This document shows, one piece after another, positions 2,928 to 53,634 of a DNA stretch of 64,000 bases. Position numbers and translations under genes: made by a program. A model generated the notes under the pieces. It did no database searches. It saw only the letters and a program-made list of their open reading frames with translations, and had not been told where the DNA came from. Source of the DNA: Callorhinchus milii (taxonomy: Eukaryota); assembly GCF_018977255.1 (NCBI RefSeq), contig NW_024704742.1:82648001-82712000 (forward strand), in the 5' to 3' direction. The first letter of the stretch is position 1. Each line of letters starts with the position of its first letter.

Positions 2928-3520
2928 CATAATAATTCTTACATTTGATAGAGCACCTTTCACGTCACAAGGACGTCTTAAAATGCGTCACAGGATATAC
3001 CGTAAAGTGTTGTGACTGTGTATTTGCAGGTGAGCACAACAGCCAATGCCCCACAAACAGCCAATGAAATGAATGGACAATTTTATTATGGAGAACGTTG
3101 ACCAGGGCACTGGGAGAAACTCCTTCTATTTTTGAGTAGTGCAAGTCCATCAATCTGTCCTGTACTCCCATTGGACCATTTGTCTGCCCATCAACCCATC
3201 CCAACCTCTCACTGAACCATCCTATCAAGTTTGGGACAGTCAAATGGTTTGATGGACAAGTAGATAGTCCAATGGACTCACTGTAGTCATGAAAATTTCC
3301 CAAAAGGTACGTTTCCAAACCATAATTTTCTTACAGCCTTACCCATGGGATCTTTAATGTCTACCTGAACAGGCAGATTAACATCTCATCAGTACAAAGG
3401 ACTTCCAGCACTCTGAGTGTCAGGCAAGAGTCTACAAGTTCAAAGTCCAATGAAAGTGGGGCTGGAATCCAGAACCTTCTGATTCAAAGGCGAGAGTGCT
3501 ACAAAATGAGCCAATATTAA
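2928..3520 (-). mobile_element. Deu-domain SINE interrupted by a ~200-bp insertion (3143-3343)
   Basis: L2-like tail, Deu domain (ccatgggatctttaatgtctacctgaacaggcaga) and tRNA-like head all present; the consensus is broken at gagtagtgc|...|ccatgggatc. Confidence 0.75.
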
Positions 3521-4139
3521 GCAATCCAATTCAGAAATACTATACCAGCATGGTGGTGATAGAATAGTGCAGCTTTCTTCTCTGTGACAAACCCAATAAT
3601 CCCTTACTGCCACTTCCAAAGGGTTTCAGACAATTTCTCCAGAGTAGAAAACATGAGAGATTTATGTAAAGGAGTTAGTGAACTGTAACACATTAGAGGA
3701 ATTAAGAGACTTTACAGCTCACAGTAATTTGTGACAGTCTTCCATAATGCACCTTATATTGGAATACTTTATCCAGGATAATAAAGATTAGATGTCACAC
3801 ATGGATTAAGGATTTTAGGTGCACACAATCCCTGCTTGGCTAATTCACTGTGTTTTGCATGACTTTGAATGAATGGGCTTCAGCTATATATTGTGTCAGT
3901 ATTTTCTTTGTAGACTTGCTCTTGTATTGCCTTGGACCAATGGTTGATGAACTGATCTAATGCATCCTGTCACTGGGGAGGGGAAGCAATTTGAAAGGAT
4001 ATATAAACTTCTGCTGATGTAACTGAATTCAGTCTTTTTTTAACCTGACATTTTCCCTCAAGTGCTGCTTCCAATATGTTTGGAAACTATTACATAGTGA
4101 CAATTAAATTGGTGGCGTGTTGCCTTTTCATCTGCTTGT

Positions 4140-4415
4140 ATTCACCAACTTGCCTGTTCAGCTGGACATTAAAGATCCTGTGGCACTATTCAAAAAGACA
4201 AGGGAGTTTCTTTCGATGTCCAAGTCAGCAATCCCCCAAATAAAATTGGTCATTCTCTCCATGGCTGTTTGTGGGACATTGCTGTTGGCAAAATGGTTGC
4301 TGCGTTTGCCAACAAAAACACACACAAGTTACACCACTTCACAGTAAATCTGGCAATGCGCTTTGGGACATCCTCTTGACTTGAAAAACACTATACCAAA
4401 TGCAAGGTTTACAAT
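4140..4415 (+). mobile_element. Deu-domain SINE, 3' portion
   Basis: gcctgttcagctggacattaaagatcctgtggcactattcaaaaag...gtttgtgggacattgctg...tataccaaatgcaagg. Confidence 0.75.
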
Positions 4416-4659
4416 TATGCTTTGTTTAACATAATGTTAAATGAAATTCACTGTCGAGAGCAAGATAATTACTGCGCTCAAACTGTTGTGATGTGCTTTG
4501 TATGTTTTTTAATTGCTATTTTGTGAAAAAAAGGTGCCTTAATGAAACAGCTGAGAGTGAGGAACATTCCACATTATGACCGCGGATTTCTAAAGGTGTT
4601 GCACTTGACACACTCTGGCCTCTCTCTTTCTCAGATGTTAACACATCCATTAACATACA

Positions 4660-4935
4660 CTATAGGAGGGTATAAATATAAGGATGCTGCTAACAGATCA
4701 TATAGGGAGCTAAGGACAAATTTCTTCACACAGGATAAGGAGAATCTGGAACTCACTATCAGAAGCTGTGGGTGATAGCAAATAGCATCTACATGTTTTA
4801 AGGAATGTAAACCTGAGGGAGAAGGAAATAGAGTGGTATAGGAGAGGAAAATGGGATGGAGGCTTATGTGGAGTATAAACACTGCACGGACAAGTTGGGC
4901 TGAATGATCTTGTTGTGCTATATCACTATGTAACT
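4660..4935 (+). mobile_element. Old CR1 LINE 3' fragment
   Basis: Encodes RTNFFTQ...WNSL, typical of the CR1 ORF2 C-terminus, followed by a CR1-type 3' UTR (gggctgaatgatcttgttgtgcta). Confidence 0.6.
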
Positions 4936-5035
4936 TTAAGGATCATACATTCTAAGCTTCATAGAATTCCTTAGTAAGAAATTGCATCAGAATTCCCACT
5001 TAACTCCACTCGGGAAATAGATTGTGTAAAATTAT

Positions 5036-5225
5036 TTACAACAACAACAACAACAACATGATTGCATTTATAGAGCGCCTTTCATGTCGGGAGGACGTCC
5101 CAAGGCGCTGGACAGTTGGGTCGGGACCCGAGCAAGGGGGAAATGGTCAGGGTGAGGGGAGGGAAGGGAGGGAGCGAGGAGGGTGTAGAGAGTTGAGAGG
5201 GGAGCTGAAGGCACGGTTGAAGAGA
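5036..5225 (-). mobile_element. L2 LINE 3' end
   Basis: (CAA)n followed by gcgcctttcatgtcgggaggacgtcccaaggcgctggacag, matching the ends of the longer L2 copies. Confidence 0.85.
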
Positions 5226-7919: not shown

Positions 7920-8800
7920 AAAAACTTCTCTCACATCCGCAACATCGTCCAGCTCCGTGGCTATCTCTCCCCACACCCCACTTGGCTGCCGAGATCTTCA
8001 ACAACGACAACAACAACAACAAGATTACATTTGTATAGCGTCTTTCAAGTCGGGAGGACGGCCCAAGACGCTGGACAGTGCACAGCATTTCAGACCCGAG
8101 CTGGGGTCAGGGAGGGAGAAGGGAGGGGAGGGGAAGGGGGGTGGCCGATAGTATGGTCGAAGAGGAGGGTCTTGAGGTGGAATTTGAAGGAGGCTAAGGA
8201 AGGGACAAAGAGGAGTGATTGGGGGATGGAATTCCAGAGGTTGGGGCAGAGTGGCTGAAGGCTCTCCCCCAATGGAGCAGGCTGGAGCCGGCTGAGCGGA
8301 GGGAGCGGGCGGGTTGGTAGGGCGTTAGGAGGTCGCAGAGGTAGGGTGGGGCGAGGCCATGGAGGGTTTTGTAGGTGAGGACCAGGATCTTGAACTGGAT
8401 CCTCTGAAGGATAGGGAGCCAATGGAATCAGGCGAGAATGGGGGAGATGGGGTCACGGAGTTTGGTGCGGGAGAGGACATGGGCTGCAGAGTTCTGGATT
8501 ATCTGCAGCCTGTGAAGGGAAGAGTTTGGAAGGCCAACAAGCAGGGCATTTGCATAGTCAAGCCTGGATGTGATGAAGGCATGAACAAGAGTTTCAGCGG
8601 CCTGAGGGGTGAGGTAATGGCGGAGTCATTCATTCACATTTCATCACTTTGAGGCTCAATTATTCCAACCCTCTCCTTGTCAGATTTTCCAACTAATCCC
8701 TTCAAAAACTGCAGAACATCTAGAACTCTGCAGCTCATGTCTTCTCCTGCACCAGGATTCATGGGGCTATTATATCTATCCTTGCTCTACTCCATTGAAT
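7920..8800 (+). mobile_element. Older L2 ORF2 fragment split by the younger L2 at 7999-8627
   Basis: Left part translates HIRNIVQLRGYLSP; right part continues IHTFITLRLNYSNPLL...LQ; both match the L2 ORF2 C-terminal region seen in other copies. Confidence 0.6.
7999..8627 (-). mobile_element. L2 LINE, 5'-truncated
   Basis: ORF2 C-terminal remnants (HYLTPQAAETLVHAFITSRLDYAN; LWNSIPQSL...FKFHLKTLLFD), 3' stem-loop and (TTG)n tail. Confidence 0.9.
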
Positions 8801-25539: not shown

Positions 25540-25725
25540 TCAACAAAAACAAAAACAATAATAAATTGGTCATTTTCAATCAACAACTGTTTGTGGGACA
25601 TTGCTGTGCGCAATTGGCTGCTGCGTTTCGCCCACAAATATACAGCATATTCTGTGAAGCGCTTTGGGACATCTAGAAGACGTGAAAAGCGCTATATCAA
25701 ATGCAAGGATTATTATTATTATTAT
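25540..25725 (+). mobile_element. tRNA-Ala-like SINE, 5'-truncated
   Basis: Body and tail nearly identical to 36670-36855. Confidence 0.85.
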
Positions 25726-26146
25726 CAGGTCAGTGTGTGATCAGTACATTCAGGTCAGTGTTTAGTCAGCAGGTTCAGGTGGTTAGTGTGCCTCCAACTG
25801 CTTGTGTGGTTCATACAATGACCTTATTTTTGACTGATATTTCTGGAATAACAAATTTGCAGGTGTCAATTTCTGATGTGATTTATCGAGTGGAAGGTTG
25901 GTTCAGCTGTTCCCTACGTAAGTGATGAAGTGTATCATGACATTTATGCCATTCATAACAATAAAATGAATATCAAATTGTGCAATTGGGAATATTTCTG
26001 CTGCAATTAATGATTACGTGTACATTAATCATGTTTTTTTTGCTCAAGGGACTGCTTTAGCAATAGGCAAATCTATTTTCTTTTTTAAAAAAAGTTTTAG
26101 TACATTATTGGCAATAGATCAGTGTGTACTGTATATTCTAAATCAT

Positions 26147-26283
26147 AACAATAATAATCCTTCCATTTGATATAGCGCTTTTCACATCTTCTATACGTCT
26201 CAAAGTGCTTGACAGAGTATAGTGTAAAGTGAATTGACTGTATATTTTGTGGGTGAAACGCGGCAGCCAATTGCGCACAGCAG
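26147..26283 (-). mobile_element. SINE 3' fragment
   Basis: Matches the shared SINE tail. Confidence 0.8.
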
Positions 26284-26722: not shown

Positions 26723-29700
26723 CACACACTCATTGAGCTCTCAGCTGTCTTGGCTCACTTGACTGTCTCTCTCCTACTGTCCACACTAAAACATGAAGAT
26801 AATGCGGAAACTTACAATCCATGAGCTATTTATTACAATGAATGTGCCAGAGGCTGACCAGCCCCTCCCCCAACGCCATTCTCAATAGTAACAATAGTAA
26901 TAGAGAGAGTGGATCTAGTATTGGGCCTCTGTATTGTGGCTTTTGGCTGCCCATGTTTTGACAGGGTAATGCCATACTGCTTTAGTAAACAAACCCTCTG
27001 AAGTACCGTTGATGGCCCTGAATGCCACAAATCAGCTTCTCGGACCTCACTATTGCAAATAGAGTCATGGAAATGGGATTGGGGAGACGGGCGAGGGAGA
27101 GAAGGTCTACAACTCATACCACCACTTTGATTATGGTAATCTCACAAGGATCAAAATTTGACCTCTGTAGGCCATTGTCCTACAATTTATGTGAATCTTT
27201 TGATCTCTTCATAACAAATAGTTTACCACTCTTATTCTTTCATCATTTCCTCGTCAATTTATTCCCTACACTTCTGAAGACAATCTAACTCTTCCTGTCT
27301 CTGGTTACTCTTCCTCCCTGTGCCTGAAACTCCCCGGATTAGATAAGCAGGGTGAGTCTCTCTGGTGAAAAAGTGTGCATTTCATTTTAAACACGGGAAA
27401 ATTTCCATGTGGAGGTGGCATACATATGTGAAGCTCTCACACTGGTCTGAATACTATTAAGATGGTGATAGATTTCCAACCGTGTCAGAAACCCAGCTGA
27501 TCAAATACCAAAATTCCCTGAAGGCACTGATTACATAGTGTCTCCATTCTTCCTGTGTGAGCCTGGACAGTGAATGCCAGCAAGCTCTTTGACCATGAAG
27601 GAAATTGCAACCAAGCAAAAGTCCTGCCCTGACCCAATATCGCCAAGCACATGCACCCCACCTCACTCAGTGGTATTGAGGAGCAGGCTTCCTGAATGAT
27701 TTTTCCTCTCCATAGCTCAGCAGTACAAAAGGCTAATTGATGCGTCTATATCATTATTGGCTCATCAAAGAGTGGGAGATACAACCTGTCAATTTTCAGG
27801 TCTACATCACTCAGTTACCCCCGTATATGACTTTATCATCTGAGCTGACTAGTGTATTGCTTGATCTGGTGTATTGTGTTCCCTGGTACCTTGCCCTAGA
27901 AGCCATTCTTAATAGATGTCTTTGGACAGCAAGCGTCCACAGGGAATTCTGTTCTGTGCCCATCTGGTGTCCCCACCTGCAAATCCCATCATGTCACTGG
28001 ATCAGGAACAGAATCACTGGATCAGGAATCTGGGCTAATGTTTCCCTTTCTCAGCTCACAGAAGCTGAGGTTAACTGTATTGCCCCCAACTCACCACCAC
28101 AGGTAATTCAGCACTAACCAGGGATTGAACCTGAGAAGTTCCTGGTTGGAGTGGCTAATTCCATGCTGACAATGTGTTTCCCAACCGGAATATCGAGCAG
28201 CATGCATTCAGTCACTTTTGCTTTGCCTGCAATTTGTTTGCGGCTCCCAGTCACATTTCTTTTTTTGATATCTCTATCTTATACTAGATTATAACTGTGT
28301 TGGTCAAGTGCTCTCCTGCTCTGAACAGTTAAAGGGCGAATGTCGTCCGTTCCCTTACCTAAACGAGAAAGGAGTTAACCGAAAGATTACTTTGTGTTAG
28401 GTTTAAAACTTGCAGTATTTGTCAATAGGTGAAAATGCAAATTTCATTCAATTGTATTACCCGAGGGTCTGACAAGCTAAGGTTGATGAAATGATTAAAA
28501 TATAATTCAGGAACTGTAAAGAGAAGGCTCCCCACCTGCATTATTTGGGTAGTGATCTCATGTCCTTCCTCACAATGTGCGAATGTCTTGTTATAATCAT
28601 GATATAACCAGACAGCTTTAATTCTTTTGCAAGTTGGTATTCTAGAGAATTTGATTGGGGTTAAAGATCTTGGAAACTCTGATGCGTGTATTTAAATGGC
28701 CAACTTATTCTGACAGTCAGATTTTGTTTATTGCAACTTGTGTGCTTTGTATTTGAGGAGCAAAACTCCTTAGTGCCTTCACAGCGTTCCCTGAATCATG
28801 TATTTACTCGTTTATTCATTTAATTTGCTAATTTACCCCACCTTAAAACCTACCTCTTTGACCAAGAACCTTCATCCTTGCTCTGCGTCCATCCCGCCAC
28901 TGTGAAGCACTCCGAGATGTTATTCTACCTGAAGGGCGCTATATAAATACATGGTGATGTTTTGAGTTTGAAACCTGTAGAACAGAAAGCCTCAAATTCC
29001 ACATTGTAACTGTGTCGGCTCAGTCGACAGCATTCAGTTACACGCATTGCATTCCAGAATTTCCATGTGTGATGTTATGTTCCACTTATTTCTGTCTCGT
29101 TTGAATACTATTAAACACTCTCTGATGAGTTTCCACATATTTCAAACCCTCGTTTGATAAAAAAATTCTCTCTGTTGCAGCACATATTTGCCTCAATGTA
29201 AATATATTGCATAGATCTGCATGTCTAGCTATCAGACAGCATGCTCAGTTGTGCCCTTATTCTGTCTATTCACTGGAAAAAAGTTCAATACACGGTGAGT
29301 CTGGTAGGCTAAATGTCTCCTCAGCATATTAATCTTAGTTATGGTTTGCAACATATTAGCAGCATAGAGGAGGTCCTGATAAAAAGCAGTCATTAAAATT
29401 CTCTTAGCATTTCTTCTGCCTAATTTCGCGCTTATCAGCAGCAGGGATGTTGGTGCTGGCAAAACAGAACCTCATCTTGCTTTCTGGTACCCAAATGAGT
29501 TGGAATTCCAGCCAGGGCTGTGCCTAGCATCTTTGGCAAATTTGTCTAATGGGAATTCCACTTTATAATCGTACGTTGGCAAAGGCACCCTGGACACTGC
29601 TGGCATTTCAGTCCACCAGTGATGTAGGAATCAACAGGATCAGAAAAGGCTTCAGGTCCTTTTGACCAATTTACAAAGTTTTTTTTCTTTAAATTAAATA

Positions 29701-35289: not shown

Positions 35290-36325
35290 AGGGTGGTGCT
35301 ACAGGGAATGTCATCAGACTAGAAAATTGTTATCAGTGGAGTTCTGCAAGCGTCTGTTTTGGGACCTCATTTGTTTAATATTTTTAAAAATGATCTGGAA
35401 CTAGGAGTCGCAAGGAGAGTGGCTAAGTTTACAGATGACACCAAGCTAATGAAGACGGTAGATTGCGAAGCTGAACAAGATAGGTTACAGGAGGACTTAA
35501 ACCTATTTGGGAATTGGGCAGATCAGTGGCAGATGAAATTCAATGTGGAGAAATGTAAAGTACTTCACATGGGGACAAAAAATCCTGGAAGGGGCTTTTA
35601 TTTGAACGCAAGGAAAATAATAAGTATGGAAAATGAATAGGACCTGGTGGGCCTGATTGACAATAAATAGAAGCTCTCCCAACAATGCTCTGTGGCAGTG
35701 AGTAAAGCAAACAAGATGTTGGGATGTATCAAAAGATCAATAGAAAGCCGAAATAGTGGTGTAATCCTGCCACTGTATAAATCAATGGTGGGACCATACT
35801 TAGAGTTCTTTGTACAGTTCTGGTCGCTGCTGTATAAAAAGGATATGGAGAAATCAAGAAGATACAGAGGACGGAAACCAAAAATGATTGAGGGAATGGA
35901 AAGACTGGACTATGAGGAGTGACTAAATAAATTGGGCACGTTCACACTGGAAAAGAAAAGATTGAGAGATGACATAATTGTTGTCTTTAAGATTCTAATA
36001 TTGATGATGGAAGGCTATTTCAACTTGTCCAGAATAGTAAAACCAGAGGACATGGCATGCAATTGAAGGGGGTTAAATTCAGAACTAATCTATGCAAACA
36101 CTATTACAGTGAATGAATAGTGAATCCGTGGAACAGACTCCTTCAGGAAGTGTTGATTCAGGAAGTGTTGATTCTTTGAAACACAGATTAGATCGTTTTC
36201 TTTTAGGAAATAACATTATGGGATGCAGTACATAAGTAGTTCGGGACATATATGCATGCAACCGCCAGAAAGGTGGAAGGCGAACTATTTTGGTCTAGCA
36301 TTTATTATGCTTTTATGCACTTATG
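35290..36325 (+). mobile_element. CR1 LINE, 5'-truncated; disrupted reverse transcriptase C-terminus
   Basis: ORFs GPHLFNIFKNDL...KFTDDTKL...WQMKFNVEKCKVLHMG and KANKMLGCIKRSIESR...LYKSMVGPYLEFFVQFWS are classic CR1 ORF2; contain stops and frameshifts. Confidence 0.93.
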
Positions 36326-48975: not shown

Positions 48976-49083
48976 TATAATAATAATAATCCTTGCATTT
49001 GATATAGCGCTTTTCACGTCTTTGAGACATCTCAAAGTGCTTCACAGAATATACTGTAAAGTGAATTGACTGTATATTTGTGG
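48976..49083 (-). mobile_element. SINE 3' fragment
   Basis: Shared tail with (TTA)n. Confidence 0.8.
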
Positions 49084-49304
49084 ACTTGAGCTGGGATACC
49101 TTTAGTTTCAATGTTTTGACGACTATTTAAAATAGAGTATCCGTTATCTGCTAAGTCAAGAACTGCTTTAATTTAACTCTTACCTGTCTAAAGAAGCACT
49201 TAATAATAATAATAATAATAATTATTTGGTTACTCAATACATGACTGTTTAAGGTGACGTGATAAGGTGCTATATCAAATGCAAGGATTATTATTATTAA
49301 TTTT

Positions 49305-49696
49305 ATGATAATAAGAGTATTACATTTGATAGAGCACCTTATCACGTCCTCAAAATGACTCAAAGCTCTTCACAGAATATACTGTAAAATGAATTGACTG
49401 TATATTTTATGGGCGAAATAAGGCAGCCAATTGCGCACAGCAGTGTCCCACAAGCATCGTGGATTGAGTGACCAAATTATTACTATTCTTTATTTATTAA
49501 ATTATTTTTTTTTCAACGGATTATTACTCCCAGAAAAGCAATCCATCAATTGACTAACAATCGGGGTCCTGCTTACTGCTGTGTAAACAGAGGTGTGTGG
49601 AAGAAGGAAACGTCCCTAATGTTTCGCCCAGCCCATTAGTCAAACCCAGGTGCTCGCCCATGCGAGGCGAGCGCTCTAACCACTGAGCTACTCCAC
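49305..49696 (-). mobile_element. tRNA-derived SINE, long form
   Basis: Head gtggagtagctcagtggttagagcgctcgcc, extra internal segment, shared tail. Confidence 0.85.
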
Positions 49697-50245: not shown

Positions 50246-52824
50246 ATTTGCTATTCAAATCTGTTATGAAACATTGCATTTATTTTTAGCTAATCTTAAA
50301 TCACTGAATATGGTGTTTTAGAGCAGCTCACAGAACAGGGACGTATCTCAATCAGAGTCTTGTAAAGCCAGCAGTCAGTCGCCGGCTCCATGGTCAGGAA
50401 CAATAAACACAGCCAAGAAGAAATGAGAACTAAAGATGTCATTGCTTAAAATCTGGGATCAGGTTTCTGGCCCAATTATTGTGCCAACGGTGGACAGAGG
50501 AAGGAGGGAGTGGAGGGTGGAGATCACATCAGATCTAGGAATAGATGGAAAAATTTGATGTTGCAAAACACATTTGATAACACCTTTGATAACAATCGAA
50601 TCTGTGGTGAAACATTCAATTTCTCAACCCACCAATCTTTTCCGTTCTGGCCGTTGGTTTTCCTGAGGTTCATAAGGATTATAATCTCTGCCAGCTCCTT
50701 CGTGTGATATCGATGTGTCAGCCTGATTGTGCAGCACAAAGCTGGCTACAGTTCAACAGATACTGGCACAGAAATTGTATGTGCTCTCACGACTGTTTGT
50801 GGGACACTGCTGTGTGCAATTGGCTGCCATGTTTCACCCACAAAATATACAGTCAATTCACTTTACAGTATATTCTGTGAAGAGCTTTGAGGACTATAGG
50901 ACACTATTTCAAATACAAGGATTTTTATTATAGATGTCTGGCATGTGGAAACCCATTGGTGAGGTATAAATAGTGAGATTAAGATGCTTTTTATGTCAAT
51001 AAAGACAGACTTTTACTCTCCATATAACTCATGCCATCAAGGAAGAGATTTTCACAAAGTGGAACGCGCTGCCTTAGGTCACTCGGGAGTAATCATTGGG
51101 TTCTGCAATGATTTTACGTAAAGCTCTAAGCAGGCCAGATTCAATACATTTTCATAGTCTCCATTGGCGGCGTGATTGAGATTCCCTGTTGTTTCTTGGC
51201 AGTGATCAAAATCGCTGAGGTACAGGAAAGGAAGATTGGCGTTACTGAGCTCAATAAAATGCAGCATAAGGTCACATTCAAATTGTTAATTGCTGATGTC
51301 TGGACCGTTTAATTATGATAGAGAAGTAATCATAGAAGTAGCTGTGGCCCTTATAGGCCAGTGGTGAAAGCACTGTTTGATTCCTGTTAGCAACAGCTTT
51401 TTGTTTTTAGCGCTTGCATCTGGTGAAGGGAGATGAGATTACTCAGGCAAATTCATGTTTGGGATGATTTATACACCGGTGAAAGGAATGTCATACGCTG
51501 TTCCTACTACAATGCTTTGAAGCTTTCAGTCTACTCGTGTTGTTTGCTGTCCTTGACGTTTTGTATCGAGACACAAAGTGTCAATAGGAAACAAGGCTGT
51601 GGCTCCATATCTCCGCGCATTCAGCCTGGATTTTTAAGATGGTGAATTGACCAATCAGGTCTGAGTTTTGAATAGCCTGCAGTGTAAACAACCTGAATCT
51701 TCTTAAAACCTAGTAAACTAAATTCTGTGCACATGTTCCTGTGTGTGTGTGTATGTGTTTGTTTGTGAGAGAGGGGGAAAATTTGCATAGAATACTTCTT
51801 TTATATAATAAAATTAGAATGACATACTTTGTATGAAAGCTTACGTTTTGTGAAGCCGAGTATCTTCAGCAGAATTGATGTTGTGACATCGGACACTGAT
51901 GAAATGCAATTTGGTGTGCAATGTGCTTCTGCATTTGCCATCAGAGACAAACTGTTCATTCTTTGCAGTTCTCCGCTGGACCTTATCGGAGAACATGCAA
52001 GCTGGAGGGCATTGGCATGGCTGATCACTCAGTAGGAAACCCAACAGCTGTGCTTCTGACAGCTGGAAAGAGCATGATGGCCCATCACTGAATGTTCGGC
52101 AGACCTAGGCTTACAGTCACAGCATGCAGTCTTAAACCTGTTAAGCTATACATAGAATTCCTCCTGAAAAGTGCTATTGCACCTCTCCCTGTACATAATG
52201 GAATGGCTGCAGAATTACATTTATGTCGCTATCAGCCCATCTGCTTTAGTTGTGCATTGCCTTAGGTGATAATATAATTGCAATTGCAGGCTATCAGTTT
52301 GCTCCTTTAAAATTTAGCTTAGATTCAACTGTATATTAACTAGTATTTGTGAACTTTATTGCTTTACTGGCAAGCAGACTGCTTTTTTGAAGCTGCAATT
52401 TCTCATTTTAACTGTTCATAGGGCTAAAATTCTTATGATTCTAGCTTCAAGACTATTTTCCTAATAGTTTAGTTCATATGAAATGTTAGAACATTTTTAA
52501 ACTCAGTCTTAACTTGGAAGCTGGTTCATTTTAGGTGCTGGAGAATAATAGCTTCCAAATAAAGACCTCAACTTGTGAACTTTCCAAAATTTAAAGTGTC
52601 AGTCTGTCTCAGTGGGCAACAGTCTAGCCTCTGAGTTACAAGGTTGTGGATTCAAGCTCCATGTCGGGATTTGGAACTCATATAGTCTAAACTTGCAATG
52701 CAATGCTGTTGTTGGAAGTGCCATCCTTTGGATGAGATGCTAAACAGAGGTTTCATATGCCTGTTTAGGTCAAAGTGAAAGGTCCAATGGCGCTATTCGA
52801 AAAGAGAAGGGAGTTTCTCCTTGT

Positions 52825-53070
52825 ACAAAACGCAAAATACCGCTGATGCTGGAATCTGAAACAAAAACAGAGAGAGCTGGGAAAAGTCAGCAGATCAGGC
52901 AGCATCTATGGAAAAAAAAAGTGAGTCAACGTTTCGGGTCCACAACCCTTTGTCAGAACGGAGAACTGGTCCAGTTCTGACGAAGGGTCGTGGATCCGAA
53001 ACGTTGACTCACTTTCCTTTCTCCATAGAAGCTGCCTGACCTGCTGAGTTTTCCCAGCTCTCTCTGTTTT
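52825..53070. mobile_element. Non-autonomous fold-back element, probably derived from Penelope-like element termini
   Basis: ~95-bp inverted arms (about 52864-52959 and 52974-53070); 13-bp direct repeat agtttctccttgt at 52812-52824 and 53071-53083. Confidence 0.85.
52973..53009 (+). ncRNA. Minimal type-I hammerhead ribozyme motif (Penelope type)
   Basis: AGUU-CUGACGA-A-GGGUC(GUG)GAUCC-GAAA-CGUU/GACU: core boxes, 5-bp stem II, palindromic ACGU in place of stem III, 4-bp stem I. Confidence 0.6.
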
Positions 53071-53634
53071 AGTTTCTCCTTGTGTCTGGTTCTAAAAATT
53101 CACCAATATTATAAATATTATTATACATAACATTCTACATTGCCTTAAATTTCAAGATTATGGTTTTAAGGCTAAGACTGTAGGAAATATTGGTCTTGGA
53201 ATTATTAGCTTTGGGTCAGTTTCATGAGCTGAGCAGCGACCTGAGACTCACTTCGCACTGATATCCTCAGTGGCCACAGCAGCTATTGCAAATAATACAT
53301 GGTTTATTTTGCTTTTGATTTATTGTTGCAACGTGACAAAGATTTGTTTTTCACAAGACCTCAATTCACAGTTCTCAATGGACATGCCCAGATACTCAGC
53401 TATTTGCCTGCCAATGACAAAGTAATGAGAAGAGGATAATTTTCAGTTGTTAGTTTCATTGATAGGGATTGGCAGCAATTTAGTCTGAGGAGCTGTTTTG
53501 GGATTAAGCCAAGTAAATACTGTGATTTCAACTGGGAAGGACTGGATTGTAGCAATATCCCAGCAATTTCCTCAAACTGTACTGACCAGGCCACTTGCTT
53601 TACTCAGCGGGCACCAGCCTGTTTCTCTACTCAC

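Follow-up and report, generated by a model that had tools for sequence, protein, structure and literature searches.

A hammerhead-bearing fold-back insert in a tRNA-headed SINE as a probable stub of a Penelope-like element

Insertions of Penelope-like elements (PLEs) have been described with an adjacent inverted copy of the terminal repeat (pLTR), an optional 31-bp tail on one inverted pLTR, palindromic head-to-head junctions and target-site duplications (TSDs) of 8–10 bp (PMC3846280). PMC8557442 describes PLE insertions with an inverted 5'-truncated copy and a 30–40-bp tail, and calls the origin of PLE inverted repeats and tails undefined; PMC2377424 reports a 34-bp repeat and inverted termini whose size varies. 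The hammerheads of PLEs carry an extra base between positions 9 and 10.1, a G10.1-C11.1 pair and a palindromic 15.2-16.2, and pairs of such minimal motifs on opposite strands, 100–700 bp apart, are on record (PMC4209133), while the cleavage of hammerhead dimers is covered in the review PMC6765202. For Poseidon PAc of the green anole, the account in PMC11167929 places the tail between two RT start sites, has the protein cut and extend both strands, and finds hammerhead cleavage dispensable for insertion.

The 246-bp insert studied here occupies positions 52825–53070 of a 64-kb stretch of DNA, the whole of which was analysed and is called the window. A preliminary description had placed it between exact 13-bp repeats and had it interrupting a SINE. 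Sequence comparison of the insert flanks revealed the exact 13-nt direct repeat, and excision of the insert in silico restored a tRNA-headed SINE whose flanks align through the insertion point to six paralogs in the window, bearing out both parts of that claim (Table 1). The TSD, together with the restoration of the SINE upon removal of the insert, thus indicates that the 246 bp arrived in one event. The TSD is 13 bp long only if A53071 derives from the target, as the sequence suggests, since 53072–53076 also prolong the inverted arm; at the level of divergence seen between the arms, the computed probability of an exact 13-bp TSD is ~0.32. The host SINE, which we take to be a Deu-SINE resembling SacSINE1, has 16 nhmmer matches within the 64-kb window, itself included. 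Sharks carry SacSINE1, a Deu SINE with a tRNA head (PMC5499810). Seven tRNA-like Rfam matches at gathering score, between 5574 and 61467 of the window, are probably SINE heads.

Table 1 Features of the insert and its target site, in window coordinates.
Feature	Position	Strand	Basis
Host tRNA-headed SINE, portion before the insertion	52591..52824	+	nhmmer matches; empty site colinear with paralogs
TSD, left copy	52812..52824	+	exact 13-nt repeat; occurs once in SINE paralogs
Unpaired tail of the long arm, 33 nt	52825..52857	-	no partner in the arm alignment
Long arm, presumed PLE terminal repeat (pLTR)	52858..52959	- (sense strand)	arm alignment
Decayed hammerhead motif, long arm	52924..52960	-	sequence and fold; G8 lost, 3-bp stem I; no descriptor match
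Head-to-head junction	52960..52978	.	17-nt palindrome 52962-52978 and short duplication; copy-specific
Short arm, second copy of the repeat, inverted and lacking the tail	52971..53070	+	arm alignment; right junction in X1 contig
Minimal type I hammerhead motif	52973..53009	+	descriptor match; predicted cut after U53005 (GUU)
TSD, right copy	53071..53083	+	exact 13-nt repeat; microhomology with the element's continuation at 53072-53076

Over 97 columns, the alignment of the arms (52864–52959 against 52974–53070) contained 8 substitutions and a single gap, with 2 of the changes being of CpG type. These ~96-nt arms agree with the two ~95-bp inverted arms of the preliminary description, and in folding the whole insert formed one hairpin (−172.9 kcal/mol, z = −21). 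The description did not include a one-sided extension of 33–39 nt, the tail of the long arm, which measures 39 nt when counted from the end of the other arm. The right arm ends 6 nt short of the start of the tail, at the point where target and element share 5 nt. The tail is multi-copy, with a depth of 27,874 at 52852 in contigs of run X1 versus 8 in unique flank. Of the small central palindrome that had been proposed, the palindrome itself was recovered and gives a DNA hairpin of −4.4 kcal/mol, but the centre is imperfect, with ~7 extra duplicated bases. On the minus strand, 52825–52905 contains an ATG-started frame of 27 codons that meets no stop before the tail ends, as would be expected of the start of a PLE ORF; the same interval and strand also resemble an intron end. 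Read through with X, the tail frame gave no homologue in a first protein search, and 2 matches to unrelated repetitive proteins in a second, so that neither search lent support to an ORF.

The hammerhead elements attributed to the right arm were all located, namely CUGACGA at 52977–52983, a 5-bp stem II (52985–52989/52993–52997), GAAA at 52998–53001, CGUU at 53002–53005 and a 4-bp stem I, with an extra A at 52984. They make up the only descriptor match in the window, versus 0.003 expected per 64 kb from 300 simulated sequences, and a looser hammerhead pattern also matched once, versus 0.01 expected. All minimal PLE hammerhead features are present in this arm: the core, the extra base at 9/10.1, the G10.1-C11.1 pair, the palindromic 15.2-16.2 and helices I and II. 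The arm alignment likewise displays the CUGACAA reported for the left arm, with its CpG-type change at G8. Compared arm against arm only, stem II differs by one-sided changes (G-C/G-U and C-G/U-G) that keep the stem. An Infernal search with Rfam models, which the preliminary description had asked for as a check, was run and matched no hammerhead model, either at E up to 10 (6 kb and 76 nt) or at gathering score (whole window). Rfam miRNA and snoRNA matches on the insert were sub-threshold and reflect the hairpin, and were set aside.

Folding predicts that the hammerhead of the locus copy is locked inside the hairpin and inactive. The pairing probability of stem II is 0.76 in the 50 nt from 52971 to 53020 but drops to 0.03 when the entire right arm is folded, and for the complete insert, on either strand, the probability of the hammerhead stems is 0. 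With one motif on each strand, the two cannot dimerise within one RNA. A computed dimer fold, set aside as uninformative, gave −9.3 kcal/mol for the hammerhead dimer versus −23.1 kcal/mol for the alternative.

We consider it probable, at roughly three chances in four, that the insert is a dead-on-arrival PLE stub, in which one hammerhead-bearing repeat with its tail is joined head-to-head to a tail-less copy from the same insertion. Its membership in the PLEs rests on anatomy as read from the sequence: a head-to-head inverted repeat with a junction palindrome, a one-sided tail of 30–40 nt and a hammerhead inside the repeat, all of them found in PLE insertions. Together with the minimal-hammerhead features and the TSD, this anatomy argues for the Penelope origin, as opposed to a MITE, that had been put forward. 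A Pfam search of 184 of the 185 window ORFs of at least 70 aa, one N-containing ORF being left out, found no GIY-YIG domain. The search returned one RVT_1 fragment (35323–35637, +), one marginal CUE-domain match (27488–27745, −) and one sub-threshold match.

Contigs of 4 of 24 runs were compared with the locus at 80% likeness, from X1 and X20 (organism A), X5 (B) and X8 (C), B and C being two related organisms. Arm depth at 52994–53027 was 391,768 in X1, 3.48 million in X5, 2.38 million in X8 and 142,862 in X20, and depth in the unique flank was 8 (range 6–9), 48, 33 and 0, respectively; summed contig depth is no copy number, and contigs can break at palindromes. At position 53030, ~99% of the depth in all four runs is T, and the A of the locus copy is private to it. 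Over the centre (52961–52969), depth was 106–224 in X1, 3,105–5,200 in X5, 1,367–2,734 in X8 and 77–112 in X20, which in each of the four runs is at most 0.6–1.3% of the depth in the neighbouring arm bin, and the centre of the locus is therefore not a family constant.

This result weighs on the interpretation that follows the preliminary description, in which the whole 246-bp fold-back represents a ribozyme-bearing, non-autonomous family and is replicated in one piece, a PLE enzyme acting in trans on a fold-back master RNA. Arrival in a single event, as marked by the TSD, accords with such copying, and in all three DNA runs the centre does exceed the single-copy level (106–224 versus 6–9 in X1), so that some copies have a similar centre. 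According to PMC3846280, pLTRs in cis suffice for trans mobilisation, and non-autonomous PLE derivatives are known (PMC8557442; bioRxiv 10.64898/2026.07.22.740005). However, a centre at ~1% of arm depth in four runs, variable junctions in other copies and hammerhead stems of probability 0 lend no support to copying of this kind; the ribozyme, like most of the repeat, would be tied up in a hairpin RNA of 219 nt, and the retrozymes described in bioRxiv 10.64898/2026.07.22.740005 are tandem repeats, not inverted pairs. We judge that interpretation unlikely.

The ends of the family contigs point in the same direction. Among the 24 loose ends listed (2,044 further), those at 52959/52974 have a low agreement of 0.35–0.37 (218, 147 and 219 contigs), as expected if copies start at the stem I foot and differ in their flanking DNA. 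Those before 52971 carry common upstream DNA, with an agreement of 0.56–0.60 (227 contigs in X8 and 43 in X20), which suggests a longer parent element. Loose ends at 53058 make visible the continuation of the family past the end of the short arm. Among the 15 joints listed (367 further), 2 fall within the SINE, 7 skip across the centre at differing coordinates, with short sides of 20–32 nt, and 6 are strand switches; 4 of these 6, at or near mirror positions, were discounted as probable mapping artefacts. The listed element joints come from organisms B and C only, and the skips could be later deletions of unstable palindromes. Since the centre is rare, copies start at the hammerhead foot and junctions vary (in B and C only), the fold-back probably arose during insertion, without a fold-back master as its template.

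Inverted pLTRs are routine in the PLE insertions described in PMC3846280, PMC8557442 and PMC2377424, which speaks against a history in which a single repeat was inserted first and its inverted arm was added later, by repair or replication template switching. The microhomology at the right junction and the slippage-like duplication at the centre are what such a history might leave behind, but both arms lie within a single TSD and the short arm reaches just to the boundary of the tail. We give the later addition very little credence. Least credible is a DNA transposon, whether a MITE or a foldback element, whose long inverted repeats are terminal. The insert is indeed short and non-coding and has long inverted repeats, a high copy number and a TSD, but its left inverted repeat is not terminal and lies behind the 33–39-nt one-sided tail. 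Many copies also resemble single arms, chance hardly accounts for the hammerhead motif, and a 13-bp TSD is unusual among the common DDE superfamilies.

Several further observations concern the family and the locus. Many family copies start at 52971–52974, where hammerhead stem I has its foot and from where the predicted cut lies ~32 nt downstream. In other copies, the shared upstream DNA ends just before CAG, a possible splice acceptor; because an intron of Drosophila virilis ends at the 5' end of helix I (PMC4209133) and CAG occurs at the same point in this repeat family, a splice site is one candidate for a defined RNA end there. The common upstream motif is absent from the 64-kb window, in which no second copy of the arm was found either. 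A 20-nt arm motif had 0 matches in viral contigs and 5 in prokaryote genomes, and its 12 matches in metagenome contigs, all just 20–26 nt long, were attributed to chance; a phage search with the insert found nothing. A contig of X1 spans the right junction with 1 difference, its element side being just 26 nt, below the 31-nt bar. In the region 52660–52812, an X1 contig follows 52709–52812 with one difference and then departs from the window for 783 nt leftward; this may reflect a structural allele or a second insertion in the same SINE. The family contigs in X20 are no demonstration of transcription at the 52825–53070 locus.

We regard the following course of insertion of the PLE stub as the probable one. 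A PLE RT/GIY-YIG protein would have made a cut in the SINE, staggered by 13 nt, and would have copied the terminal repeat only, from a full-length transcript or a short single-arm RNA. Reverse transcription from the top-strand nick after 52824 would begin at the far end of the tail, and the inverted arm would begin at its near end, either primed from the second nick, where target and element share 5 nt, or formed when the first cDNA folded back on itself at the palindrome of the junction. The two arms would each stop at the foot of stem I, would be identical at insertion and would then decay separately, and the hammerhead would be a passenger inherited from the parent repeat, predicted to be unfolded in the locus copy. 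The clustering of 5' ends at the stem I foot favours a defined RNA end, and trans mobilisation of a short single-arm RNA is possible.

We tentatively propose twin priming by a dimeric PLE enzyme as one form of this mechanism, possible though not probable. In this pathway, both nicks of the 13-nt staggered cut would prime on an RNA of ~140 nt at two tail-bracketing RT start sites, followed by extension of both cDNAs to the stem I foot, ~32 nt upstream of the predicted cut, where a short fold-back would join them. On this view, the short single-arm RNA would represent a non-autonomous derivative of PLEs, and a very abundant one in the genomes compared. If this is true, the family offers a large natural data set on the origin of inverted pLTRs.

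Taken singly, the locus is an ordinary, inert retroelement scar, and a clean example because the paralogs of the split SINE supply the empty site. The repeat family matters more, being very abundant and having mappable junctions that could test twin priming versus self-priming. PLE stubs may also be mistaken for MITEs or microRNA hairpins, the best Rfam match here being a sub-threshold miRNA model. Other inverted pairs in the window, at 25602–26282, 8463–8754 and 48978–49348, have no hammerhead motif. We take these pairs to resemble LINE or SINE 3' ends in opposite orientation. No paper on shark PLE fold-backs or on PLE twin priming was found in a search of the openly available literature.

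Both the layout of the insert and its motif class are already published. The insert resembles the endonuclease-positive PLEs described in PMC3846280, PMC8557442 and PMC2377424 in its head-to-head repeats, junction palindrome, 30–40-nt one-sided extension, TSD and hammerhead within the repeat, and differs from them in having no ORF between the repeats, an extreme truncation; its TSD is 13 bp, compared with 8–10 bp in the rotifer PLE examples of PMC3846280. With the animal non-LTR retrozymes of bioRxiv 10.64898/2026.07.22.740005 it shares a small size, the absence of coding sequence, a type I hammerhead and a relation to pLTRs. Those retrozymes are described as head-to-tail tandem arrays, whereas the insert consists of one inverted pair whose motifs are on opposite strands, and no tandem head-to-tail hammerhead units were found at the locus. 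The core, the lack of helix III, the 4-bp helix I and the occurrence of two motifs on opposite strands are shared with the metazoan PLE minimal type I hammerheads of PMC4209133; helix II is 7–8 bp in the Schistosoma families treated there, whereas the motif here, known from its sequence, has 5 bp and the triplet GUU and is predicted to be sequestered. Compared by description with PAc (PMC11167929), the insert lacks the ATT-rich target motif given there and has 5 nt of homology at its right junction, a match that may be due to chance, as that paper describes priming without homology. Two RT start sites bracketing the tail, as in PAc, would explain both arm ends of the insert, and in likeness to PAc the copies include the uncleaved hammerhead.
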